64,000 nt of DNA from a virus. The position numbers and the translations under genes were made by a program. The stretch lies in the IMG/VR virus record IMGVR_UViG_3300028107_000175, positions 87,578 through 151,577 of that record. The stretch is one strand, 5' to 3'. The notes beneath the pieces are model-generated. The model was not told where the DNA came from, made no database searches, and saw only the letters and a program-made list of their open reading frames with translations. Of this stretch, positions 690 through 41,339 are shown one piece after another. Every line of letters begins with the position of its first letter. The first letter of the stretch is position 1.

Positions 690-956
690 GTGTTCTTTCT
701 TGCATGCCTTGGCTTTGCAACTGCTGTCAATGCGTTAACCTACCTATACCTGCGTCTGAATCGTTATCGATTCAGGCGGGGTGAGAACCTGTGTGTGGTA
801 ATCACTACCATGCTGATTTGGATACCAATGCTGATGGGGGCGAACGCCGGCTCTAAGAGCGTCATGGCGATGGCGCTATGGGTATTGGTGACTGTGGGCA
901 ATCTGGTGCTTTACCTCAAATACATGCACCGCAATCATCAGACTGCCGTGAGTTGA
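690..956 (+). CDS. Small membrane protein (about 88 aa, about 3 TM helices)
   Basis: GGGGAG RBS then in-frame GTG at 690; three hydrophobic segments. The ORF-track ATG at 648 lies inside the terminator hairpin. Confidence 0.55.
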   Translation: MFFLACLGFATAVNALTYLYLRLNRYRFRRGENLCVVITTMLIWIPMLMGANAGSKSVMAMALWVLVTVGNLVLYLKYMHRNHQTAVS

Positions 957-968
957 TCCAAAAATAAC

Positions 969-994
969 TCAGTCACTTATTATCCCTTAGTGAG
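969..994 (+). promoter_or_regulatory. Putative phage early (virion RNAP) promoter
   Basis: TCAG-TCACTTATTATCCCTT-AGTGAG aligns without gaps to the copy at 6141-6166 and to the family at 23655/39642/39846; resembles the phiKZ TATATTAC early core. Confidence 0.65.
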
Positions 995-6210: not shown

Positions 6211-8280
6211 ATGAACACTAACAACCAACTTCGTCCCGAAGTGTTGGCAATGGCGGCACTGCAACCTTTCCCTGGGAAGGTAGCCAACTCCCGTATGCAG
6301 ATGATGGGGTCCCACGTCAGTCAGGCGCTGGTGATCAAGGGGGCGACGACCCGCCGGATTCTGACGGGCGTCGAGCGTGAGTTCGGCCGCTTCACGTTCA
6401 GCGTGAAGATGCCGGTCAATGCAGAGATTCTGCGCGTCATCCCGAAGTACCGCCCTAGTGTGGGCCGCAATGCAATCCGTGAGAACCCCTTGGATGTGGT
6501 GGTTTACATGGACATGGAAACTGGTGAGTTGGGCGTGCTGCAAATCCCATCTTTCAGTGCACGTCACCAGCACTTCGGCTTCCGTTACAAGGACCGTGCG
6601 ATCCGCCGGATGTTGCACGAGCCGGGCATTGCCATCGAAGCAGGTACGATCATTGCCGACTCGCCCAACGTGGATGAGCTGGGCAACTATCGTATCGGCA
6701 TTGAAACCAATGTCCTGTTCGCCTCGATGCCGGGCATCATTGAAGACGGCGTCATCGTCTCTGATGAATACGTCGAACGACTGACGGCCACGGGCTTTGA
6801 AACCCGCACCGCCAGCTTCGGCGCCAAGATGTTCCCGCTCAACCTGTACGGTGATGAGACCGAGTACAAGCCGTTCCCGGACATCGGGTCGGTCGTGCGC
6901 GATGACGGTCTGCTCTTTGCCATGCGTCACTACGATCCGCTGATGGCGGCTATCGACATGACGCCTGAAGCACTGCGACAGGTGAACTACAGTTTCGATC
7001 AGCGCGTCTATGCTGAACCCGGTGCCAAGGTGGTGGACGTCAACGTCCGTTACGGTGCGCGTCCGGGTAAGTCCACCATTCCGGTGGCCATGGAAGCCCA
7101 GGCCAAGCGTTACTACGAGCTGACCCTGAACTTCTACGAAGCGCTGATGGCGGAGTACACCAAGCAGCGCAAGCTGACGGGTAAAGATCCGCGCATCACT
7201 CCCGAGTTCCATCGCCTGTTGGTGGAGGGCCTGATCTATCGCCCCGATCCGAATCGTTCGCGCGCTACGCTGATCTACAAGCTGCAGCCGCTGGACGAAT
7301 GGCGTGTGGATGTCACCTTCGAGTATCCGGTCAAGCCGGTAGTCGGGTCCAAGCTGACCGGCTTCTCTGGCGATAAGGGCGTGATCTGTCAGATCCGTCC
7401 CAAGGCGGACATGCCGGTGGACCAGGAAGGTAACGTGGCCGATGCAGTGATGGACGGTGACTCGACGATCAAGCGCATGAACACCTCGCGCATGTACGAA
7501 CAGTACCTGAACATCACCAGTCGCACGGTGACCAACTACATCCGCAACATGGCGCCCAAGACCGAGGCGCAGTACAAGGCGGCGTGGGATTACGTGCTGG
7601 GCTACTACGAGATCGTCAGCCCGCGCTTTGCAGTGATCCTGCGCACCGAGTACGACCTGGGCCCGCGCTTCCACATCGACGCCATCATCAGGGACGGGAT
7701 CTACCTGTGGTATCCGACGGACAATCCGGTGTACGCACCGGACATGATCCGTCAACTGCAGGCCAAGTACCCGGTCCTGCATGCACCGGTGACCTACCGC
7801 GGCATGTCGGGCAAGATGCGTACCACCAAGAAGCCGATGTTCATCGGCAGCATCTACGTGATGCTGTTGGAGAAAACGGGTGTGGACTGCTCGGGTGTGG
7901 CCTCGGCCAAGCTCAACCACTTCGGCCTGACTGCCAAACTGACCAACGCAGACAAGTATTCCTCCCCGCGTCGTCCGCAGCCGGTTCGCGGCGTGGGTGA
8001 ATCGGAAGGTCGTCTGCTGGTGGCAACGATCGGTTCGGACATGACCGCTGAGATTCTGGAAATGTCCTGCTCCCCGCAGACCCACAAGAACGTGGTGCGC
8101 AACATCCTGCGTGCGGAGAAGCCGACCGACATCGATGCGGTGGTCGATCGTACTGTGGCCCCGCGTGGCCATAACCGCAGTCTCATCTACATCAAGCACT
8201 CGCTGCAGTGCATGGGTGTGGAGTTCCACGTTACCCCGGCAGACGATGCCGAACCTGTCATCTACCCGGAGAAGTCGTAA
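6211..8280 (+). CDS. Non-virion RNAP beta subunit, C-terminal part (phiKZ gp71-73-like), uninterrupted
   Basis: beta motifs: NSRMQMMGSHVSQ, IIEDGVIVS, VGSKLTGFSGDKGVI (beta region H), IKRMNTSRMYEQ, PVRGVGESE (region I). Confidence 0.9.
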   Translation: MNTNNQLRPEVLAMAALQPFPGKVANSRMQMMGSHVSQALVIKGATTRRILTGVEREFGRFTFSVKMPVNAEILRVIPKYRPSVGRNAIRENPLDVVVYMDMETGELGVLQIPSFSARHQHFGFRYKDRAIRRMLHEPGIAIEAGTIIADSPNVDELGNYRIGIETNVLFASMPGIIEDGVIVSDEYVERLTATGFETRTASFGAKMFPLNLYGDETEYKPFPDIGSVVRDDGLLFAMRHYDPLMAAIDMTPEALRQVNYSFDQRVYAEPGAKVVDVNVRYGARPGKSTIPVAMEAQAKRYYELTLNFYEALMAEYTKQRKLTGKDPRITPEFHRLLVEGLIYRPDPNRSRATLIYKLQPLDEWRVDVTFEYPVKPVVGSKLTGFSGDKGVICQIRPKADMPVDQEGNVADAVMDGDSTIKRMNTSRMYEQYLNITSRTVTNYIRNMAPKTEAQYKAAWDYVLGYYEIVSPRFAVILRTEYDLGPRFHIDAIIRDGIYLWYPTDNPVYAPDMIRQLQAKYPVLHAPVTYRGMSGKMRTTKKPMFIGSIYVMLLEKTGVDCSGVASAKLNHFGLTAKLTNADKYSSPRRPQPVRGVGESEGRLLVATIGSDMTAEILEMSCSPQTHKNVVRNILRAEKPTDIDAVVDRTVAPRGHNRSLIYIKHSLQCMGVEFHVTPADDAEPVIYPEKS

Positions 8281-10229
8281 TGCTGAGGTTGCATGCCCGT
8301 GAACTTGCGGCCATGACTGACGAACAGCGCTGGGCACTGGATGTAGGTCAGCCTCCACAGGCACCGATGGAAGTGATGTTTGACGATGGGGTGTTGCTCA
8401 CCACCATCCGCAAGAGCATCTACTCCTCGTACATGTGGGACTCCTACATCCACTACCCCAATGGTCCTGCGCTGCAACGTCATCACATTGGTAACGCACG
8501 CTTGGGAATGGATACCCACCTGGAGCTGATGAATCGGGTGCTCTGGGATACCTTCGACGCCTATCGCGGCGTGTTGGATCTGGAACTGATGTGCCGGCAG
8601 ATCTATCAGGCCATCAACCGTTTGTACAACGTGCTGACGTACAACTTGGAGGAGTACATCACCTCCATTTCGATCCTGGACTTCATCGGCGTCTCTGAAC
8701 ATCCCAAGATCAAGGAGATCGTCGCCAACACCGAACCCACCAGCTTCTCGGTGGAGAACTACTGCTATCCCAAGGCCAAGGACGTCATTCTCAATGACTC
8801 CAGCCTGAACGATAATGCCGTAGCCATCGTGGCCCGCAATGGCCTGGTGTCGATGGGTCAGGTGTTGCAGACCTGTGTGGTCCGTGGTGCGGTGGCGGAC
8901 ATCGATGAGCGGATCTTCCGCCATCCGATCATGTCCAACTTCACCTCTGGTCTGGATCAGTTCCACGACTCGCTCACCGAGTCGCGCTCGGCGGCCAAGG
9001 CGCTCAGCTTCACCCAAGAGCCGCTGCAGGAAGTGGAGTATTTCAACCGCAAGATGCAGCTGATGGCAGGCGTGGTGATGCGTTTGCATCGCGGCGACTG
9101 TGGCAGCAAGCATTACATCCGTTGGCACGTGCACTCCGGCGATCTGGCCAAGCTGGCCGGTCACTACTACGAGGGCGAAGATGGCACGCTGCACGTCATC
9201 AGTACCTCGGACAAGCACCTGATCGGCAAGACCATCATGAAGCGCTCCACGCTTCTGTGCGTCCATCCGGACCCGCAGGGTGTCTGTGCTGCGTGTATGG
9301 GTCAGTTGAGCCTCAGCGTGCCGCTGGGGGACAATCCGGGCCACTTCTCCGCTACGGCGATGGGTGAGCAGGCTGCGCAGCGCGTGCTGTCCACCAAGCA
9401 TCTGGATGGTAACTCTTCGGCCACCGGTAAGGAGCTGACCAGCTACGAGCAGAAGTTCCTCCGTACCGAGGAGGACACCAACATCCTGAAGGTCTCTCGA
9501 GATCTGATGGGCAAAAAGGTACTGCTCACGCTCAACGGTAAGGAAGCCGAACAGCTCTCGGACGTGACGTATGTGGAACGGGTCACCGATCTGCAGACCG
9601 GTCAGATCACCTCGCTCACCGAGGTGCTGTTCACCACGCTCCATGACAACGGTAACAACGAGCGTTCCAACATCACGGTGAATGTGGGCTCCCGTCACCC
9701 CAGCCTGACCCACGAGGCATTGGCCTACGTCAAGGAAAAGAGCTGGTCGCTGGATGCCAACGGTAACGTGGTGATCGACCTGACGGACTGGAACAACGAC
9801 CATCCGTTGTTCGAGCTGCCGTTGCGACATGTCAACATGCTGGATTCTATGAAGAGTATCGAGCGCTTTATGCGCGCCTCGGCTTCTTCGAGCGACTCCG
9901 GCAGCGGTCCGACGTTGCGTGATTACAACACGATGGAAGAAGCACTGCGGGCGTTCTACGAGCTGGTCACCTCGATGCTGTCGGTCAACATGGCACATCT
10001 GGAGATCCTGCTCAAGTCGCTCACGATCCGCAGTGAGGAACATCGTGACTACCGCCTGCCGCGTGTGGGCAATGCGTTCGTGGTGGGTGCGTTCGATACC
10101 ATCATCGAGAATCGTAGCCTCTCGGCTGCGATGGCCTACGAGAAGCATCGTCAGGTGCTCACCTCCACGACCACGCTGCTCAACAAGCACCGGCCGGATC
10201 ATCCGTTGGACGCCCTGATGGTGGGCTAA
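8280..10229 (+). CDS. Non-virion RNAP beta' subunit, C-terminal part (phiKZ gp74-like)
   Basis: TAATG overlap with the upstream gene; bridge-helix-like YFNRKMQL, GDCGS, Zn-binding C..(VCAACMG), GEQAAQRVLSTKH (beta' region G). Confidence 0.9.
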   Translation: MLRLHARELAAMTDEQRWALDVGQPPQAPMEVMFDDGVLLTTIRKSIYSSYMWDSYIHYPNGPALQRHHIGNARLGMDTHLELMNRVLWDTFDAYRGVLDLELMCRQIYQAINRLYNVLTYNLEEYITSISILDFIGVSEHPKIKEIVANTEPTSFSVENYCYPKAKDVILNDSSLNDNAVAIVARNGLVSMGQVLQTCVVRGAVADIDERIFRHPIMSNFTSGLDQFHDSLTESRSAAKALSFTQEPLQEVEYFNRKMQLMAGVVMRLHRGDCGSKHYIRWHVHSGDLAKLAGHYYEGEDGTLHVISTSDKHLIGKTIMKRSTLLCVHPDPQGVCAACMGQLSLSVPLGDNPGHFSATAMGEQAAQRVLSTKHLDGNSSATGKELTSYEQKFLRTEEDTNILKVSRDLMGKKVLLTLNGKEAEQLSDVTYVERVTDLQTGQITSLTEVLFTTLHDNGNNERSNITVNVGSRHPSLTHEALAYVKEKSWSLDANGNVVIDLTDWNNDHPLFELPLRHVNMLDSMKSIERFMRASASSSDSGSGPTLRDYNTMEEALRAFYELVTSMLSVNMAHLEILLKSLTIRSEEHRDYRLPRVGNAFVVGAFDTIIENRSLSAAMAYEKHRQVLTSTTTLLNKHRPDHPLDALMVG

Positions 10230-23654: not shown

Positions 23655-23691
23655 GATTGAACCGAATTTCAGATCTATAACACTTCCATGT
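23655..23691 (+). promoter_or_regulatory. Putative phage early promoter (37-bp family)
   Basis: GATTGAACCGAATTTCAGATCTATAACACTTCCATGT; ungapped alignment with 39642 and 39846. Confidence 0.75.
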
Positions 23692-31130: not shown

Positions 31131-32489
31131 ATGTCCACCCGTAATCGCATCCTGGCCGCTCTGTCCAACGAGAGCCTGCAGGAAGATCCGAACGCCGCTG
31201 CTGCCGCCGCTGGCGGTGAAACCACCGCCGTTGAAGCCCCCATCGAAGCGCCGGCCGAAGTCGAGCAGCCGCTGATGGAAGTGGCCGAAGCCGAAGGCGA
31301 AGCCGACCAGGCTCTGGCCGCCGCTGACGAAGCCACCGAAGTGGTCGAAGCGCTGGAAAGCCTGCAGGACCTGCTGGAAGGTCACCAGGAAGACGGCCTG
31401 AACCCGCAGGCTGCCGAGATCGCCCAGTTCGCCGTCGAACAGCTGTACAAGCGCGTCGGCCTGAGCAATGGCCACGGCCTGCCGTCGCTGGAATCCTTCA
31501 GCGGCCACAGCAACCGCGTGCGCGCCACGCAGCTGTCGCAGGAAGCCATCGGCCAGAAGATCAAGGAATTCTGGGCGGCCATCGTCCAGATGCTGATCAA
31601 GGCCAAGGAAGCCGTGTTCAACTTCATCAAGAAGATCTTCGACGCGCACTACCGCGTGTCCGAGCGCGCCAAGTCGCTGGCCGGCAAGGTCGACGGTCTG
31701 ACCGGCACCCCGAAGGACGGCGAAATCGATCTGGGCAGCCTCGCCCAGAAGGTCGCCATCGGTGACAAGGTCGCCACCCCGCTGCACAGCGCGATCACCG
31801 CCGTGCAGGACGTGCTGAAGGACGTGCTGTCCTTCGGTGAAGCCGAAACCAAGAGCCTGACCGAAAGCTACGAAGCCGTCAAGGCGGCAGTCGAAGGCGG
31901 CAGCGCCGGCGATTCCAAGGTGTACGGTGGCTTCGAACTGGCGGCCTCCAAGGCCTTCAAGAATGCCGTCAACGGCCGTGAAGGCGTGAAGGCAACCGAC
32001 GTCCTGCCGGGCAACGTCAAGTTCTTCCTGGGCACCGAGAAGTCCAAGCTGGGCAACCTGCTGGTCAACTACGCGGTGAGCGGCAAGATCAAGGACAGCG
32101 CCAAGGCCGGCAACACCAAGATCAAGGTGCTGTCGAAGGAAGAAATCAAGCAGGCCATCTCGGCCATCGAACTGCTGCTGCAGCAGGCCAAGGCCGTCTC
32201 CGACGCCGCTTCGAAGGAAGTGGAACGTTCGAAGAAGACCTTCGCCAGCATCAAGGTCGGCGACGAAGCCAAGATCAAGGACCAGGTCGTCCTGCGTTCG
32301 CTGATGCGCGCCTTCCAGAAGCAGGAAGCCGAGCAGGGCAAGGCCGCTGGCCGCGTTGCCTCCTACGCCGTGGAACTGAGCAACGACGTGCTGAACGTCC
32401 TGCAGAAGTGCATGGTGGCCTACGACCGCGGCAACGCGGACGCCGGCGCCAAGCAGATCGGCCAGGACAAGAAGGAAGACAAGAAGTAA
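31131..32489 (+). CDS. Internal head protein paralog (gp93/95/97-like family)
   Basis: Ala/Glu-rich propeptide, LPSLESF and LSQE|AIGQKIKEFW motifs. Confidence 0.7.
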   Translation: MSTRNRILAALSNESLQEDPNAAAAAAGGETTAVEAPIEAPAEVEQPLMEVAEAEGEADQALAAADEATEVVEALESLQDLLEGHQEDGLNPQAAEIAQFAVEQLYKRVGLSNGHGLPSLESFSGHSNRVRATQLSQEAIGQKIKEFWAAIVQMLIKAKEAVFNFIKKIFDAHYRVSERAKSLAGKVDGLTGTPKDGEIDLGSLAQKVAIGDKVATPLHSAITAVQDVLKDVLSFGEAETKSLTESYEAVKAAVEGGSAGDSKVYGGFELAASKAFKNAVNGREGVKATDVLPGNVKFFLGTEKSKLGNLLVNYAVSGKIKDSAKAGNTKIKVLSKEEIKQAISAIELLLQQAKAVSDAASKEVERSKKTFASIKVGDEAKIKDQVVLRSLMRAFQKQEAEQGKAAGRVASYAVELSNDVLNVLQKCMVAYDRGNADAGAKQIGQDKKEDKK

Positions 32490-32542
32490 TTCTTGTCGCG
32501 CCTGGGCCTGAGGTCCTCTCCTAGGAGAGGCCTCTAGCATAC

Positions 32543-32578
32543 TCCCTCCCCGGTTTCGGCCGGGGAGGGTTTTATGCT
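32543..32578 (+). terminator. Hairpin flanked by GCATA and TTATGC
   Basis: CCCTCCCCGG-tttcgg-CCGGGGAGGG then TTTTATGC. Confidence 0.7.
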
Positions 32579-32640
32579 GCCATCTTATGACTCGCCAGTC
32601 TCGCGCTGCGATGTATCAACCACATTACAGGACAGTTCCC

Positions 32641-34035
32641 ATGTCGAATCTCAAAGCACATTTCGGTCTGGCGGTCGAATCCGCTGCCGAAGCAGCCGCC
32701 GCTGTTTCCGAAGTGGCCACCATGCCGGTGACCTCCGCTGAACTGGTGACCCCCGAAGACGGTCCCATTGCCGAAGCCAATGCTGAAGTGGCTGCTGAAG
32801 TCGAGGCCGCTGGCGGTCTGGAAGAAGCCACCGTTGCACTGGAACAGCTGCATGCCATCCTCTCCGAAGCGCTGGATGACGGCGGTATGTCCCGCCAGAC
32901 CGCGCGCGTGACGCAGGTCGCCGTGGACATGGCGCATCGCCGCATGGGCCTGAGCCCGCGTGCCCTGACCTTCGAGAACGACATGCCGCCCATGGCCCGC
33001 ACGCGCCTGACCATGGAAAGCATCAGCGAATCCATGAAGGCCGCATGGGATGGCTTCATCGCCTTCTGCCTGCGCATCTGGGCCGCAATCAAGAACGTCT
33101 ACCTGAACCTGACCAGCAAGGCACGTCGTCTGCGCCAGCAGGCTACCAAGCTGAGCGAACTGGCCAAGGCCATCGCACCGGGTACCAAGGCCACCGCTCG
33201 CGAAGTCGAGCTGGGTGAACTGGCCAAGTGGATGTACTTCAACGACACCAAGGCCGCCGGTCCGGTGGATTGGCTGGAGACCACCAACGCTTCGGTGCGC
33301 GATGGCGTGGACAACGTCCTGAAGACCGCAACCGATGCCGTGGACGGCCTGGTCAAGACCCTGGGTTCGATCGATGCCAGCGACCGCGGCAGTCTGAGCT
33401 TCACCGTCAAGATGCTCGGCGCTCAGCCGGCCGGCTACATGACGGCCGTGGGCTCGCCGCAGGGTGAAGGCGTCACCGCCCGTCAGCAGTACATCGCAGG
33501 CGTCATGCCCGGCGGTCTGAACCTGGTCGCCAACCTGCCGGCTCCCAACGCGTTCACTGCCTACGAAAGCGCGCCGGAAGATCAGCGCGTACAGGCCGTG
33601 GGTCGTGACCACTACGTCCTGCAGCCTTCGGAAAAGCAACCGACCGTGGAAAAGGTCTACGTGCTGGAAACGGTCAAGCTGGAAGAGCTGGCTTCTTACA
33701 TCGCCGTGATGTGCGGTGACTACGAAAGCTACATGGGCAAGATCGCCGATTTCGAAAAGCATCTGTCCCAGAAGCTGAACACCCTGCGCAGTGCCATGGG
33801 CAAGATCCAGAACACCGTCAACGTCGGCCACGGCGAAGCGGGTAAGTGGAATCGTGTCCTGGCCGCCACCCAGCGTGTGCAGTCCTCGCGCTTTGCTCAG
33901 CTCACCACGATGGGCGAGTACAACCTGCGTGCCGGTAGTGCCTACCTGCATGTGGTCAGCAAGATGCTGGGTCTGTACGCCACGGCAACGCCGGCTGCTG
34001 CTCCGGCAGCTGCGCCGGCTCCGGCCGCAGCCTGA
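32641..34035 (+). CDS. Internal head protein paralog
   Basis: GLAVES, LTFE and LTME|SISESMKAAW sites; Ala/Pro C-terminal tail; start re-picked at MSNLKAH. Confidence 0.7.
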   Translation: MSNLKAHFGLAVESAAEAAAAVSEVATMPVTSAELVTPEDGPIAEANAEVAAEVEAAGGLEEATVALEQLHAILSEALDDGGMSRQTARVTQVAVDMAHRRMGLSPRALTFENDMPPMARTRLTMESISESMKAAWDGFIAFCLRIWAAIKNVYLNLTSKARRLRQQATKLSELAKAIAPGTKATAREVELGELAKWMYFNDTKAAGPVDWLETTNASVRDGVDNVLKTATDAVDGLVKTLGSIDASDRGSLSFTVKMLGAQPAGYMTAVGSPQGEGVTARQQYIAGVMPGGLNLVANLPAPNAFTAYESAPEDQRVQAVGRDHYVLQPSEKQPTVEKVYVLETVKLEELASYIAVMCGDYESYMGKIADFEKHLSQKLNTLRSAMGKIQNTVNVGHGEAGKWNRVLAATQRVQSSRFAQLTTMGEYNLRAGSAYLHVVSKMLGLYATATPAAAPAAAPAPAAA

Positions 34036-34044
34036 TGTAGGCAT

Positions 34045-34080
34045 AGCCCCACTCCCTAACCGGGGAGTGGGGTTTTATGC
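34045..34080 (+). terminator. Hairpin flanked by GGCATA and TTATGC
   Basis: CCCCACTCCC-ctaaccg-GGGAGTGGGG then TTTTATGC. Confidence 0.7.
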
Positions 34081-34147
34081 TGATCGTATGGCTTTTACTG
34101 CTCCATCCTCTAGGGCGTCGGCCCCTTATTTGCCATTGAGGTAAATC

Positions 34148-35425
34148 ATGAACCGTAACAACTTCCAAAAGGCTCTCCGGGGTGAAGTCTCCGTTGAGAG
34201 TCGATCCTTGGAGACGCTGGACGCCCTGGCGACCGTGGACATGTCCCACGATGTCGGTCTGGACCTGCAGTCTCTGGATCAGCAGATGCAGAAACTGGAC
34301 GCGTTGATCCACCTGCAGTCTGTGGCAGCTCTCGTGCCGAAGCATTCGATGGAATCGCTGGCCTATGTTGAAGCGGCTTTGTCCGCTGTGGGTGAAGCTG
34401 CGGCACTGCCGTCGCTGGAGTCCTATAAGGACACCACGCTGGCCACCGAAGGTCTGGGCGATCGCATTCGTCAACTGATTGCCAACATCCGCGCTTTCCT
34501 TGCACGCATCGTCGTCAAGATCAAGGCGTTCTTCGGCGCACTGGGTGAAGATGCCAGTCAGCTGCAGTTCCGACTGGAACTGGCCCGTGACCTGCACAAG
34601 GAACTCTCCGGCCGCTTCCCCAAGAAGTCGCAGGTGCAGCTGGGTCAGACGGCACTGATGCTGGCCATGCGTGAGGGTATCCCCAATGATGCCCGCCTGA
34701 TCATGACCTATGGTCGCAACATCGAGACCCAGCTCAAGTCGCTGCGTACGAACTACATCCCCAGTGTCAAGACGGTCGGTTCGGGATTGGCTGACCTGTT
34801 GAAGCATCCGGCCATTGGTGCCGATCAGGGCGATGGCTGGCTGGACAAGATGACGCAGGTCTGTGCACCGATGTCCTTCGATCGTCTGAAGCAAGTGATC
34901 GGTCCGCTTTCGCGCATGGTCGACAGTCGCTTCACCGTCAACTCCGCTTACATGGGTCCGCCGATCCTGGGCGGTCGTGCGCTGGTGTTGCTGGACGGTC
35001 GCGTGGACCATTCTGGCAGCGATCCGATTTCCCGCGCCATGGCGGCACGTCACACCAAGTTCGTCTTCGTACGTCCGTACCAGGCCAAGCAGGTTGACAC
35101 CAGCATGGCCGTCATGCCCACCATCCCACACACCCTGATCGGTGGCGTGCTGGATTTGGCACAAGACCTGTTGACGGAAGTGGGCCACTCCCAGGGGGAA
35201 GGTCTGCGTTCCAGTCTGGTGGAAATGGATCGTCAGCTTGATGCGTTGGCCAAGCAGGTTCCCGATGCAGTGGGTAACGTCAATGCGATCCAAGTGGGAC
35301 TGGGCTTTGGTACCAGTTTCTCCCAGTGGTGCACTGCGCCGTATCTGGAGATGATCTCCCACACGCTCTCGGTCGTCAACGCCCTGATCATTGCTTCCAA
35401 CAAGCACATGGCTGCTTACCGCTGA
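34148..35425 (+). CDS. Internal head protein paralog
   Basis: LPSLESY and LATE|GLGDRIRQLI motifs. Confidence 0.7.
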   Translation: MNRNNFQKALRGEVSVESRSLETLDALATVDMSHDVGLDLQSLDQQMQKLDALIHLQSVAALVPKHSMESLAYVEAALSAVGEAAALPSLESYKDTTLATEGLGDRIRQLIANIRAFLARIVVKIKAFFGALGEDASQLQFRLELARDLHKELSGRFPKKSQVQLGQTALMLAMREGIPNDARLIMTYGRNIETQLKSLRTNYIPSVKTVGSGLADLLKHPAIGADQGDGWLDKMTQVCAPMSFDRLKQVIGPLSRMVDSRFTVNSAYMGPPILGGRALVLLDGRVDHSGSDPISRAMAARHTKFVFVRPYQAKQVDTSMAVMPTIPHTLIGGVLDLAQDLLTEVGHSQGEGLRSSLVEMDRQLDALAKQVPDAVGNVNAIQVGLGFGTSFSQWCTAPYLEMISHTLSVVNALIIASNKHMAAYR

Positions 35426-35492
35426 TTTTTGATCGGCACTCCATCATCTATGGTGATTTAGCACCATGGCTTTTTTCCAAGGAACTGACAAC

Positions 35493-37427
35493 ATGTCCCA
35501 GTACACTCGCAATCGCCTTCGACAGGCCATGGAGTCGTTGCAGGAAGGCGGCCAGCCCGACCTGACTGTCGTCGACGTCCCGGTCACGCCGGAGATCCCG
35601 GCCGTGCAGGCACCGGCCTCCGAAGTGGTCAATCTGATCCAATCCACCGCGCAGGCTCAGGCCGATCGCGAATACGTGGAAGAAGCACGTTCCATCGTCG
35701 ATGGCGTGCGTGACTTCACCGAAGCTGCTGAAGTGGTCAATGCCCGTGGCGGCATTACCCAGGAAGCCTATGGCTGGATGGCCATGGGTCTGAACCGTCT
35801 GGCCACCGCCATCGGTGCCAAGATCCCGCAGAACCTGAACATCGGTCTGGAGGCGTTCAATGACGGCGGCCGTGTCCAGCTCGACATGCAGGAACTCAAC
35901 GGCCTGCTGGCCACCGTGAGCGAAGGCACGCAGCGTCTGGAGGCCCGTTCGGCTGAAGCGGTGTGTCGCATGCTCGACGCCCTCGCCGAGGCACTGCCGG
36001 CCGCACAGGAGCGTCTGTGCCATGTCGCAGAGATCGCCAAGTCTCGCGAGCACGAGCCGGAAGGCAACGTCGTGTTCGGTGACGGTCTGAACGTCGCCCT
36101 GAGCGTGGACGGTCAGGTTCCCGATGAACTGGTGAACTACCTGCAGCGCTATGCACTGCTGGGTCAGGCGATCATCACCAACTACTCCACCCAGGCCTTC
36201 GATGCGGCCATGGCCGTGGCCACGCTGCCGGACACGATGGACTTCGCCAGTCCCGAAGCGTTCTGGGCCTCGGTGGCTGTCAAGGTCGATGCCGTGGAAG
36301 ATCCGCGCAACGCCCTGACCGAAGATCAGCTGGTGGCTTCGCTGCCCAACGGCGGTCGTCTGTTCGGTGACCGTAAGGACGCCGAGATCCCCGAAGGCGG
36401 CAACCCGGTGCTGAAGAAGCTGATCGAATTCAGCGAATCGCGCGCCGTGGAAGAGCAGGCCAACGATGCCAACGTGCAGCGCGTGGAAGAAGGTCAGCCC
36501 GGCTATGGTCGTAAGGCCCTGCCGCTGAACGACATCCGCGTGATCTCCCGCTCGCTGTGCGAGCTGCTGGAGAAGGTCGACGTCAATGCACTGGCTCAGC
36601 GCAGCAAGGCTGTGCGCGGTGACGTGATCAGTGCGGTCTCCACCGCCAAGTCGCGCTTTGCCGAAACCAACCAGGACATGAAGATGTTCCTGTCCGACCA
36701 GTTCGGCGTGGTGGTCAAGTACATCGACACCGCCTACCTGCTCAGCGATTGGCCGATCCTGAACTACCTGTCCAACCTGGTGTTCACCACCAACGCGTTC
36801 GTGCTCTACGCCGAGCGTTCGCTGGCGCTGCCGGAAGGTGGCGTGCCCGATGAACAGCCCGAAGCGCAGGCTCCGCCGGCTGCCGATCCGACTGCCGCAC
36901 CTCCGGCACCGGAAGGTGATCCGAATGCGGCGGCTGCTCCGGCTGCTGACGCTACCGATCCCAATGCGGCCCCGCCGGCCGCAGGTACGGATGATGCTGG
37001 CGCCGCCGTTGGCGGTGATCCCACTGCTGCGGTGGACCCCAACGCGCCGCCGGCCGATGGTGAGCAGGGTACCCAGCCTGCCGATCCGGCCAACCCGGAT
37101 GCTCCGGCCACCCAGGACGGGACGACCGATCCGGCGCTGAAGAGCAACGATCCGGCGCAGGACCCGAACGTTGATCCGGACGTGGCTGCTGCGGCTCAGG
37201 GTGAGATCACCCCGGCTGCTGCCGACGCTGGCGTGGGTCAGCCCAAGGATGCCGCTGGCGCGGATGTTCCGGGCGCTGATGCAGCTGCCGCTGCTGCTGA
37301 CGATACCGGCGCTCCGCCGGCTGATGGCACCACTCCTCCGCCCGACGGGACCAACCCGCCGGCCACTCCGGGGGAAGAGGAAGAAGACGAAGACGATGAT
37401 GAGGACGACCAGCAGGCCACGGCCTGA
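35493..37427 (+). CDS. Internal head/virion protein with a ~195-aa Pro/Ala/Asp-rich tail
   Basis: AAGGA RBS at MSQYTRN; QAMES and IGLE|AF sites; PAADP/DPNA repeats ending EEEEDEDDDEDD. Confidence 0.7.
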   Translation: MSQYTRNRLRQAMESLQEGGQPDLTVVDVPVTPEIPAVQAPASEVVNLIQSTAQAQADREYVEEARSIVDGVRDFTEAAEVVNARGGITQEAYGWMAMGLNRLATAIGAKIPQNLNIGLEAFNDGGRVQLDMQELNGLLATVSEGTQRLEARSAEAVCRMLDALAEALPAAQERLCHVAEIAKSREHEPEGNVVFGDGLNVALSVDGQVPDELVNYLQRYALLGQAIITNYSTQAFDAAMAVATLPDTMDFASPEAFWASVAVKVDAVEDPRNALTEDQLVASLPNGGRLFGDRKDAEIPEGGNPVLKKLIEFSESRAVEEQANDANVQRVEEGQPGYGRKALPLNDIRVISRSLCELLEKVDVNALAQRSKAVRGDVISAVSTAKSRFAETNQDMKMFLSDQFGVVVKYIDTAYLLSDWPILNYLSNLVFTTNAFVLYAERSLALPEGGVPDEQPEAQAPPAADPTAAPPAPEGDPNAAAAPAADATDPNAAPPAAGTDDAGAAVGGDPTAAVDPNAPPADGEQGTQPADPANPDAPATQDGTTDPALKSNDPAQDPNVDPDVAAAAQGEITPAAADAGVGQPKDAAGADVPGADAAAAAADDTGAPPADGTTPPPDGTNPPATPGEEEEDEDDDEDDQQATA

Positions 37428-38789: not shown

Positions 38790-38800
38790 GAAAGCACATA

Positions 38801-38835
38801 GCCCCTCCCGCGATTAGGCGGGAGGGGTTTATGTT
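38801..38835 (+). terminator. Hairpin flanked by CATA and TTATG, ending the head-protein operon
   Basis: CCCCTCCCGC-gattag-GCGGGAGGGG then TTTATG. Confidence 0.75.
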
Positions 38836-38920
38836 CATCTACCCTTAACGTAATACATGAAAATTTAACGACGCTGACAATGGTTTGAATAGAGCCATAC
38901 CGTTTCAGGGGGACACCAAA

Positions 38921-39073
38921 ATGACCATGTGGTCGCTACGGAGGTTTTTCCAAACACGCTCGTTCACTGTGTGGCATCAAGATAGTCCAGGCATGAAGGT
39001 CCGCGTTCGGCGGAACTGGATTCAACGCCTGTTCTATCCACGGTCGTTTAGCGTCGTTGGAGAACGATACTAA
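38921..39073 (+). CDS. Small basic hypothetical protein (50 aa)
   Basis: GGGGGA RBS, ATG at 38921; Arg/Trp-rich. Confidence 0.45.
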   Translation: MTMWSLRRFFQTRSFTVWHQDSPGMKVRVRRNWIQRLFYPRSFSVVGERY

Positions 39074-39181
39074 TTGGGGCATGCCGACGGGCATGTCACG
39101 GGGGAGAGTCAGAGATGACTCAGAACAAGAACAGAGGGCTCGTCTAGGGGTAACAACAAAAGCATTACGGAGTAACAAGCC

Positions 39182-39586
39182 ATGCGCCAGATCTATCCGT
39201 CCACCATGAATCCGAGCCTCAACGCGCTGAACATGACCGCAGTCGATCTGCCGGGCATGGGCGAAGCGCAGCGTCGCTACGTGATCGGCGGTTTCCAGAC
39301 CGCCTTCAATCCCGCCAATCGCGGCCAGCAATTCCCGGCCATGTTCACCGAGCTGCCCATCTTCTTCCACGATGGCCCGGTGTTCGCCGATGCTCCGCTC
39401 AACGGCGTCACGCCCGAGAGCCTGCTGGCTGTCGTCGCTGACCATCTCCAGAGCAAGCTGCGCACCCCCGCCGGCTGCATCGAGATGCACATGGCTGTGG
39501 AGAACATCATGCTGGCCATCAGCAATCTGTCGCGCCGTAGCGAGGTGCGTTACGCATCCGCCGACGCTTACCAGCAAGCCGTTTGA
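39182..39586 (+). CDS. tad1: Divergent Tad1-like anti-defence sponge protein
   Basis: PGMGEAQRRYVI ~ Tad1 GPGGAxHxYxI; IFFHDGP ~ IxFQxGP; NGVTPESLLAVVADHL ~ xGVxxxDLLxIVxDRL; P..C.E...A...I..A...L.RR...R ~ PF.(C/S)RENA.A...EEAL.W..RR...R. Confidence 0.65.
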   Translation: MRQIYPSTMNPSLNALNMTAVDLPGMGEAQRRYVIGGFQTAFNPANRGQQFPAMFTELPIFFHDGPVFADAPLNGVTPESLLAVVADHLQSKLRTPAGCIEMHMAVENIMLAISNLSRRSEVRYASADAYQQAV

Positions 39587-39634
39587 CATATCCCCTATCC
39601 GGCTCCCGCAAGGGCCGGATAGGGGTGCTATGTC
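39585..39634 (+). terminator. Long hairpin with GACATA/TATGTC arms
   Basis: GACATA-t-CCCCTATCCGGC...GCCGGATAGGGG-tgc-TATGTC. Confidence 0.65.
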
Positions 39635-39641
39635 GTATGTC

Positions 39642-39678
39642 GATTGAACCGAATTTGAGCCACATATCAACCCCGTGT
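39642..39678 (+). promoter_or_regulatory. Putative phage early promoter (37-bp family)
   Basis: GATTGAACCGAATTTGAGCCACATATCAACCCCGTGT. Confidence 0.75.
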
Positions 39679-39931: not shown

Positions 39932-40822
39932 ATGACCGCTACCAAGAAGACCCACGTTTCCGTGATCGCCATCAACGATGCCATTGGCAAGCTGACCGGT
40001 CGCAATAAGCTGCGCGTGCTGGAGTTCCAGAACTACTGGAATAATGGTACCGGGTACTTCGACGGTCTGGTGAACACCAGCGCAGAAGTAGTCGGTGTCG
40101 AAGAAGGCGAGCTGACGGTGTCCATGGATACCGCTGGTCGCTTCGTCTTCATCGGTGTGCTCGAAGGCAATATCTGCTGCGCCTTCCAGCGCTACCAGGT
40201 TGAGCCGGGCAAGCAGAACACCACCATCATCCTGCAGCTGCAGAATGAGGATGACAACGTTGCCGGCAAGGCTCTGGGTGACACCCATGGCCCGATGTAC
40301 TTCGAGCAGCTGCTGCAGTTCATCCGCCTGTTCAAGAACGGCAACCCGATTGCCGACTCCATCAATTCCCGTGCTGGCATCACTGTCAGCGAAACCGAAA
40401 TTGCAAAGGCCTCCAGCGCGGCCGTTGCTCTGACCACCAGCGCTGAACCCACCCTCTCTGAAGCTAACCAGGAAAACCTCGCCATGTCGAACAACAACCA
40501 GAACACCGCCGCTGCCGCTACCGATGCCGTCGCCAACGCTGCTGCCAGCGCCACCCAGACCGTGAAGGAAGCTGCGGTCGATGCGACCGGCGCCGCTGCC
40601 GGCGCTGTGGCCGATGCCGCCGATGCGGTGTCCGCCACTGCCCAGCAGGTCGAAGCCAAGACCATGGGCGAGAAGGCCAAGATGTCGGTGGAGCGTGCTC
40701 GCGATGTGATCGCCAACGCCACCGGCAACATCAAGCGTCGCGACGTCGCCTTCTTCGGCGGCGGCGTGGCTGCCGGCGTGCTGGGCGTGCTGGCCTTCCG
40801 CGCCCTGACCAGCCGCGAGTAA
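39932..40822 (+). CDS. Early protein: jumbo-phage N-terminal domain (WNNGTGYFDG) fused in frame to an Ala-rich tail-anchored domain
   Basis: 296-aa ORF; internal AGGA RBS and ATG at 40484; C-terminal TM helix. Confidence 0.7.
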   Translation: MTATKKTHVSVIAINDAIGKLTGRNKLRVLEFQNYWNNGTGYFDGLVNTSAEVVGVEEGELTVSMDTAGRFVFIGVLEGNICCAFQRYQVEPGKQNTTIILQLQNEDDNVAGKALGDTHGPMYFEQLLQFIRLFKNGNPIADSINSRAGITVSETEIAKASSAAVALTTSAEPTLSEANQENLAMSNNNQNTAAAATDAVANAAASATQTVKEAAVDATGAAAGAVADAADAVSATAQQVEAKTMGEKAKMSVERARDVIANATGNIKRRDVAFFGGGVAAGVLGVLAFRALTSRE

Positions 40823-40896
40823 TCGCGACGGTTCTACCTGCGGCCCTACGGGGCCGCAGTTGCAACACCATCCCTCAACTACCCAAAGTGAATGAC

Positions 40897-41115
40897 ATGC
40901 CGAAGAACAACGAAACCCTGACCCCGGGCCAGCAGCTCGATGCCATGCTGAACGATCTGGCCAATGGCGCCGGAATGGAACTGGAACCGGTGAAGCGCAA
41001 CTCCCCCACCATGGAAGTCGTCAAGACCGGTGCCTGCGTGATCGGCACGGTGGGCATCGCCCTGGGCGTGACCTACCTGATGGGTAAGGCCGCCGAAGCC
41101 ATCCTGGCCGAGTAA
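40897..41115 (+). CDS. Small protein with a C-terminal TM helix
   Basis: VIGTVGIALGVTYLMG helix; follows the hairpin at 40840-40860. Confidence 0.6.
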   Translation: MPKNNETLTPGQQLDAMLNDLANGAGMELEPVKRNSPTMEVVKTGACVIGTVGIALGVTYLMGKAAEAILAE

Positions 41116-41180: not shown

Positions 41181-41339
41181 ATGAACATGCAGAAGCTCAA
41201 CACCGGCCTGGGCCTGAACCTGTCCCCGCGCAGCCAAGCCATCGTCAAGGGTGCTGTCCAAGGCGCCGCCATCGGCGTGGCGGTCAATGCTGTCATGTTG
41301 GCCGCTGTCGTGGCCGTGACGCTGGCGACCCGCAAGTAA
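41181..41339 (+). CDS. Small membrane peptide (52 aa, not in the ORF track)
   Basis: AAGGA RBS; MNMQKLNTGL...AVMLAAVVAVTLATRK*. Confidence 0.65.
   Translation: MNMQKLNTGLGLNLSPRSQAIVKGAVQGAAIGVAVNAVMLAAVVAVTLATRK

Follow-up and report, generated by a model that had tools for sequence, protein, structure and literature searches.

A Tad1-like gene in a chimallin-encoding jumbo phage

The window analyzed here is a 64 000-nt stretch of a 190-kb IMG/VR contig that is ~71% complete. At positions 39182-39586 (+), it carries a gene (P0001) that encodes a Tad1-like protein of 134 aa and ends in TGA. The sequence reads as a GGAG ribosome-binding site at 39169..39172 (+), 9 nt 5' of the ATG, and GGAGTAAC at this site is kept in the related loci L006 and L007. 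The GC3 of the gene, 0.81, is similar to that of the neighboring genes. A longer N-terminus was considered and rejected: no start codon lies between the preceding in-frame stop and 39182, and the 390 nt upstream do not resemble the upstream Tad1-like paralogues seen in relatives.

A first-pass annotation of this DNA had assigned the product to the Tad1 family from a series of scaffold motifs, and all of these are present in the 134-aa protein in the order given there: G25.G27.A29...Y33-V-I and I60.F62..G65-P66 in the N-terminal part, N74-G-V....L81-L..V85.D87.L89 in the middle, and P96..C99.E101...A105...I109..A112...L116.R118-R119...R123 in the C-terminal part. The substitutions that it had pointed out (F62-H63, D87-H88-L89, K92-L93, I100-E101-M102 and M110-L111-A112) are real when the protein is set against a profile alignment with CbTad1 and the consensus of 98 relatives, which reads FQNGP, DRL, FQ and (x)EN at these places and has a VEG tail. 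The GVEGT tail that it had reported as missing is indeed absent, the protein ending in ...SADAYQQAV.

The same contig encodes a chimallin homologue (G000:C1:79141-80496, ~7 kb upstream of the window), with 26% identity to phiKZ gp054 (E 6e-29), and homologues of phiKZ gp55, gp68, gp71, gp73 and gp74, the non-virion RNA polymerase subunits, at ~1177-2607 and 6241-10226 of the window. Judged by this gene content, the source is a chimallivirus-like jumbo phage; the chimallin homologue bears out the nucleus-forming phage proposed in the first pass. Such phages are shielded from nucleases yet still exposed to signalling-based abortive infection.

Upstream of the Tad1-like gene lie internal-head-protein paralogues (PHROG matches for 31131-35425), and the L006 gene orthologous to the window's upstream gene carries the phiKZ_IP domain (PF12699). 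The genes downstream include those for a conserved protein of 562 aa and for a head-tail joining protein (PF24214/PF24215). Related members of the clade described below are found directly after the phiKZ_IP array or its last member, of 460-918 aa, in eight out of eight sampled contexts (L006, L011, L013, L014/L015, L020/L021, L022, L023 and Xanthomonas phage RTH11). The gene thus occupies a conserved slot between the array and the ~550-aa and head-tail-joining genes, with a set of small genes between it and the ~550-aa gene that varies among relatives. In L013, the upstream gene was matched by BLASTP to the window's 653-aa protein (35466-37427, +). The latter has a long Pro/Ala/Asp-rich low-complexity C-terminal tail with an acidic run at its end, is homologous to the RTH11 723-aa and L013 488-aa proteins that close the internal-head-protein array, and has no Pfam or PHROG match. 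On the other side, the products of 39932-40822, 40888-41115 and 41181-41339 (all +) end in Gly/Ala-rich hydrophobic helices, and homologues of the first of these, of 296 aa, occupy the matching position in L009, L013 and L014.

Several relatives carry a second, still more divergent Tad1-like paralogue immediately upstream (L011, L013, L014/L015, L021, L022 and RTH11). The divergent paralogues of these tandem pairs are at 7455-7877 in L011, 7402-7836 in L014, 2844-3290 in L013, 7542-7916 in L003 (RTH11), 593-1015 and 1206-1637 in L022, and 7630-8037 in L021. The second copy of L020 is truncated to profile positions 1-68, while the near-identical L021 keeps a full copy. Only one copy is present in the window and in L006, L007, L009 and L023. 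This distribution indicates a dynamic locus, with tandem paralogues in relatives and one copy in decay in L020; the window lineage has lost the upstream paralogue.

Signals flanking the gene

The Tad1-like gene appears to form a small unit of its own. Directly after the upstream 452-aa gene, a GC-rich hairpin at 38796..38834 (+; -30.7 kcal/mol, z -6.95) keeps its stem through compensatory changes in L007 and L009; being terminator-like, it would close the internal-head-protein operon. Overlapping its end is an AT-rich stretch (38825..38893, +), one of 31 segments with GC <= 33% in the 190-kb record and partly conserved in L006 and L007, which may be the promoter region of the Tad1-like unit. 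It contains no sigma-70-type match. A second strong terminator-like hairpin follows directly after the Tad1-like stop codon (39592..39625, +; -36 kcal/mol, z -6.3). A scan for consensus sigma-70 promoters and intrinsic terminators gave nothing relevant; the hairpins were revealed by folding.

Within the 390-nt gap upstream of the gene, the block at 38921..39073 (+) is more conserved than the flanking coding DNA, with 73-83% invariant columns in the window, L006 and L007, while dS in the neighboring coding sequences is ~0.6. It is a candidate for a small ORF with a basic product of 50 aa, for a structured leader, or for both: codon position 3 accounts for 20 of 33 substitutions, L006 has an in-frame TAA, and a multi-stem RNA fold is also predicted. 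The block occurs once in the record and has no Rfam, Pfam or tRNA/tmRNA match. Between it and the Tad1-like gene is a short hairpin (39077..39097, +; -16.1 kcal/mol, z -3.2), in which two stem pairs are changed on both sides in L006.

A motif of ~35 nt, CGATTGAA-nn-GAA-n-T-nn-AG ... TATAAC/TATCAAC, lies upstream of small genes at 23656, 39643 and 39847 (all +) and is a candidate phage promoter class. This CGATTGAAnnGAA...TATAAC motif has only three copies in the 190 kb, two of them just downstream of the Tad1-like terminator, and it presumably represents the 'early promoters' of the first-pass annotation. The 'early island' in which that annotation placed the gene is unsupported: the gene directly follows internal-head-protein paralogues, a position kept in all eight relatives, the motif copies at 39643 and 39847 lie beyond its terminator, and hairpins flank it. 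Two further AT-rich intergenic pairs in the record may also be promoter classes, namely CACTTAT[TC]ATCCCTT.GT (window 949-993 and C1:78526-78569) and TCATCGTAAACAnTTACAAACCTACA (C1:163693-163735 and C1:184183-184230).

Membership of the Tad1 family

Most searches that start from the single sequence or from existing family models do not place this protein. It has no match in Pfam at E <= 10, a PADLOC scan returned nothing, and its PHROGs matches are confined to families of unknown function. A megablast of the region against GenBank phages gave no match, a single-protein related-locus search of IMG/VR recovered no relatives, and a word-based protein search found only three close orthologues. Single-sequence phmmer against PDB sequences reached phiKZ gp184 (8Y6V chain I) with an E-value of 1.5e-5 and CmTad1 with 0.07, the latter match spanning the helical hairpin. 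The wider family was reached only by an exhaustive profile search, which collected 499 clusters at E <= 1e-3. With a profile of 98 relatives, the E-values are 3e-28 for phiKZ gp184, 3e-23 for CbTad1 and 2.6e-19 for CmTad1, a sequence likeness that is far above chance.

An AlphaFold2 (AF2) model built with an alignment of family relatives is confident (pLDDT 91.2). It has an N-terminal three-stranded beta-sheet (strands 17-20, 32-36 and 57-62) and a two-helix hairpin (helices 78-93 and 100-133), and is without a C-terminal lid. As the first pass had anticipated in proposing a Foldseek search, the predicted fold is Tad1-like: the best 20 matches consist entirely of chains from CbTad1 or CmTad1 (probability 1.0, TM 0.66-0.77), and the next match has E > 0.6. 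VIA-align against 7uav_A gave Z 10.6 with an rmsd of 4.0 A over 116 residues, and alignments with Z < 8 span the helical hairpin only. In this confident model, the full-length fold matches only Tad1 structures.

Tad1 is an interlocked homodimer sealed by a four-helix bundle, with two pockets, each set between the beta-sheet of one chain and the alpha1-alpha2 region of its partner. Prediction of a two-copy complex of the Tad1-like protein scored 0.79, the best of three controls scoring 0.00; among proteins of solved structure, 20 of 30 one-chain pairs and 1 of 23 single chains attained this mark. Contact agreement among runs is at least 94% and partner pLDDT at least 79. The contacts, at residues 81/82/85 and 105/108/109/112, form an alpha1/alpha1 and alpha2/alpha2 bundle as in CbTad1. 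The protein is thus predicted to be an interlocked homodimer, a result that may reflect likeness, as Tad1 dimers are among the solved structures. Because of the profile match, the fold and the predicted dimer, membership of the Tad1 homology family is secure.

Tad1 (Thoeris anti-defence 1) proteins act as sponges for the alarm molecules of bacterial immunity. CbTad1, from a Clostridium botulinum prophage (PDB 7UAV, 7UAW, 8SMD and 8KBE-H), shares with the Tad1-like protein the antiparallel beta-sheet with a two-helix hairpin and, by prediction, the interlocked dimer. The fold of CmTad1 (PDB 8KBB-D) is also alike (VIA-align Z 9.2-9.6), but CmTad1 is a hexamer that binds cA3/cAAG via R88 and T95 (bioRxiv 10.1101/2023.11.15.567273), where the protein studied here has I100 and E107. 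Closest in sequence among solved structures is phiKZ gp184, which also comes from a chimallin-encoding jumbo phage and is the published phiKZ Tad1 (bioRxiv 10.1101/2025.11.23.690004; PMC13282480). The protein associates with the capsid, is not essential and reportedly passes into the next cell (PMC11297242; bioRxiv 10.1101/2025.11.23.690004; PMC13282480). Unlike the Tad1-like protein, gp184 is 230 aa long with a ~100-aa N-terminal capsid-anchoring part, occupies another place in the genome, groups with the canonical clade in the tree and keeps Q, the N92 equivalent, both arginines and a GTEGT lid, in contrast to the remodelled pocket without a lid found here.

Membership of the Acb2 (anti-CBASS 2) family was rejected. 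Acb2 / T4 Vs.4 (PDB 7UQ2; PF24729) is likewise a small phage protein that forms homo-oligomers, as is predicted for the Tad1-like protein, and the two share the helical hairpin only (Z 6.7 over 58 residues); Acb2 has no beta-sheet domain. The Pfam model PF24729 (Acb2_Tad1_hairpin) has no match in the Tad1-like protein or anywhere else in the 190-kb record. The record also contains no match to Tad2 and no second Tad1 domain, and so no other detectable sponge, which we count in favor of a sponge function for this gene.

A rebuilt ligand pocket without a lid

Eleven contacts to gcADPR were listed for CbTad1 by Leavitt et al. (bioRxiv 10.1101/2022.05.03.490397). The adenine is sandwiched by F82 and R109, with N92 contacting its Hoogsteen edge; three arginines, R57, R109 and R113, bind the diphosphate; the ribose is buttressed by F87, and H29, G55, R78 and N122 bind the ribose-ribose linkage; and a lid of residues 116-122 gives a backbone contact at G120 (bioRxiv 10.1101/2022.05.03.490397). 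The double mutants F82A/N92A and R109A/R113A are severely reduced in binding of both gcADPR and cGAMP, and in the hexamer cyclic trinucleotides are bound through R90 and T97 (bioRxiv 10.1101/2023.11.15.567273).

Mapping these positions through the gap-free alpha1-alpha2 alignment gives R31, G65, V67, H88, K92, A97, I100, M102, E107, R119 and R123 as the pocket equivalents in the Tad1-like protein. H29, R57, R78, F82, F87 and N92 of CbTad1 correspond to R31, V67, H88, K92, A97 and M102, and the only CbTad1 contacts that survive are the backbone glycine G65 (G55 in CbTad1) and the diphosphate arginines R119 and R123 (R109 and R113). In functional terms, the base-recognition pair F82/N92 is replaced by K92/M102 with R119 kept; the linkage ligands H29 and R78 and the buttress F87 are now R31, H88 and A97, with no counterpart to N122; of the diphosphate ligands, V67 stands for R57, a residue that is not conserved in the family either. 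The lid (GVEGT/VLGT in CbTad1) is absent. At the cyclic-trinucleotide positions R90/T97, the protein has I100 and E107, and at the hexamer contacts it has S114, N115 and R118 instead of M, W and K (M102, W103 and K106 of CmTad1), a weak criterion since these positions vary in the canonical clade too. The residue changes that the first-pass annotation had read from the letters alone hold in the CbTad1 profile alignment, and the pocket states show that ligand contacts are changed. Considered as a gcADPR sponge, the protein, going by these residues, fails on base recognition, linkage ligands and lid.

The divergent clade and selection on the gene

When 154 domain sequences are placed in a tree, the Tad1-like protein falls in a well-separated clade of 25 cluster representatives, which a branch of SH-aLRT 95 parts from the other 129 rows. 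The 25-row divergent side holds the query, P0002-P0011, further representatives and Xanthomonas phage RTH11; the 129-row canonical side includes OLIVR5, Burkholderia phage FLC9 gp131 and phiKZ gp184. Most canonical rows show the pocket pattern H-Q-G-R-F-Q-[FY]-x-N-x-R-R with a GVEGT-type tail, and have F at the F82 position (83%) and N at the N92 position (91%). A lid-like motif was found in 102 of 126 canonical rows versus 3 of 24 divergent rows. Our literature search found no paper describing a lid-less divergent Tad1 clade.

Conservation at nine pocket positions separates the two sides. In the canonical clade it is 0.80 against a background of 0.53 (P ~0.001), whereas in the divergent clade it is 0.41 against 0.47 and in the query's five-member subgroup 0.73 against 0.75, that is, with no conservation above background. 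Positions 97, 100 and 102 differ even between near orthologues. Within the subgroup, R119 is present in five of five members, R123 in three of five and G65 in five of five. Residues common to both clades (Y33, G37, F38, N43, F62, N74-G75, T77, L81-L82, D87, L89, A105, A112 and L116) belong to the fold and dimer core; the divergent clade has gained few conserved positions of its own (M1, R2, R32, T40 and V76), and no shared new pocket signature is visible there. Pocket positions at background fit a ligand that changes lineage by lineage and a loss of binding equally well, and they are the main argument against a conserved new ligand in the divergent clade.

The gene itself is under purifying selection. 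Against its two nearest orthologues, at 84% and 77% identity, dN/dS is 0.15 and 0.23, and between those two it is 0.13, with dS of 0.6-0.8 across the comparisons. Because dN/dS stays at 0.13-0.23, decay is ruled out, and the 'degenerate' protein that the first pass had offered as an alternative does not stand up.

Possible functions of the Tad1-like protein

Since its pocket has been rebuilt and the closing lid is gone, the Tad1-like protein probably binds a different signal or has taken another job. Canonical function and decay are both unlikely. The reading we place ahead of the others, though we stop a little short of calling it probable, is a functional Tad1 homologue that acts as a sponge-like homodimer with changed specificity, because the diphosphate arginines are kept, selection is purifying, no other sponge is detectable, the duplicated locus is dynamic and sponges are known to be plastic (PMC12393519). 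Sponge homologues change their ligand through pocket changes (PMC12393519), and several TIR signals have no known Tad1 sponge, such as the canonical cADPR of Thoeris types VII and VIII (bioRxiv 10.64898/2025.12.03.692087). On this account, the protein's divergent lid-less clade would hold a fixed place behind the internal-head-protein array in chimallin-encoding jumbo phages of an RTH11-like lineage, and the gene would be transcribed as its own small hairpin-bounded unit, possibly together with the upstream 50-aa ORF. The fold and interlocked homodimer would be kept, as they are in silico, and with them the G65 backbone position and R119/R123; the adenine-stacking Phe, the Hoogsteen Asn, the linkage ligands and the lid have been replaced or lost. 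With K92, M102, R31, H88 and A97 and no lid, the pocket is predicted to be more open and more basic, with a different or looser base specificity. The protein would then sequester a phosphate-bearing, nucleotide-derived alarm molecule in the host cytoplasm, and 1''-2'/1''-3' gcADPR would not be bound in the canonical way. Besides the background-level conservation of the pocket, two points count against a sponge. Loss of the lid leads one to expect lower affinity for a small ligand, and a gene that keeps strictly to one place among structural genes across deep divergence looks more like a core or virion gene than an accessory one for counter-defence.

Those same points would be expected if the scaffold had been re-used, with the Tad1 fold and dimer kept, small-molecule binding lost and the protein serving as a head-associated or ejected, or a protein-binding, factor co-inherited with the internal head proteins. 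This is the main rival, which we consider possible but less likely than not. The background-level conservation of the pocket, the absence of the lid from nearly the whole divergent clade, the placement of the gene, throughout the eight contexts, right behind the phiKZ_IP array or the final member of that array and the capsid association of phiKZ's own Tad1, gp184 (PMC11297242), all point this way. Yet the protein lacks an N-terminal extension like the capsid-anchoring part of gp184, the gene is a hairpin-bounded unit of its own and not embedded in the head operon, and two phosphate-binding arginines persist in the query's subgroup. Also, 65 of 84 sponge homologues tested, with 20 Tad1 homologues in that study, were active against at least one of seven systems (PMC12393519), suggesting that divergent homologues usually stay sponges.

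Ordinary Tad1 function, in which gcADPR and/or CBASS cyclic dinucleotides would be sequestered via the retained arginines and substitute contacts, is improbable. R119, R123 and G65 are indeed retained, the functional phiKZ gp184 itself departs at three contacts, with K, L and Y for H29, R78 and F82, and even the canonical clade does not conserve R90 and T97, which bind cyclic trinucleotides. Set against this, 7 of the 11 CbTad1 contacts are changed together (H29, R57, R78, F82, F87 and N92, plus the lid's G120/N122), both base-recognition residues are among them, the F82A/N92A change in CbTad1 severely cuts binding of gcADPR and cGAMP (bioRxiv 10.1101/2023.11.15.567273), and the Pfam Acb2_Tad1_hairpin model does not detect the protein. 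Least credible of all is a decaying remnant without function, which we regard as very improbable. Many family-conserved residues have been lost, a sister copy can decay in relatives (L020) and the window lineage has lost its upstream paralogue; but the low dN/dS, an ORF that is intact in all orthologues, the conserved ribosome-binding site and N-terminus, the confident fold prediction and the conserved fold-core residues argue for a maintained protein.

Implications for signal discovery

Tad1 and Tad2 have served as signal-discovery tools, gcADPR and His-ADPR having been identified inside sponges (PMC12393519), and a 2026 review names Tad1 as the sole anti-defence protein yet described from jumbo phages (PMC13282480). 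A Tad1 clade that is maintained with a rebuilt pocket would offer a ready-made bait for signals that have no known sponge. We can extend the changed-specificity reading into a speculative proposal, unlikely when its parts are taken jointly, in which the lid-less clade consists of sponges for signals that no known Tad1 captures. Candidates would be canonical cADPR, N7-cADPR, His-ADPR-like conjugates, pyrimidine cyclic nucleotides or an undiscovered signal; the tandem paralogues of relatives might cover two signals or form heterodimers; and adjacency to the internal head proteins might mean that the sponge is delivered together with the ejected contents of the head and is in place before the phage nucleus forms. 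If ligand binding has instead been lost, the clade documents the recruitment of a counter-defence fold into a giant-phage head-gene module. Both outcomes are directly testable in Xanthomonas phage RTH11, a relative in culture that has the tandem pair. RTH11 has the divergent pair only, and phiKZ and FLC9 have one canonical, N-terminally extended Tad1 each.
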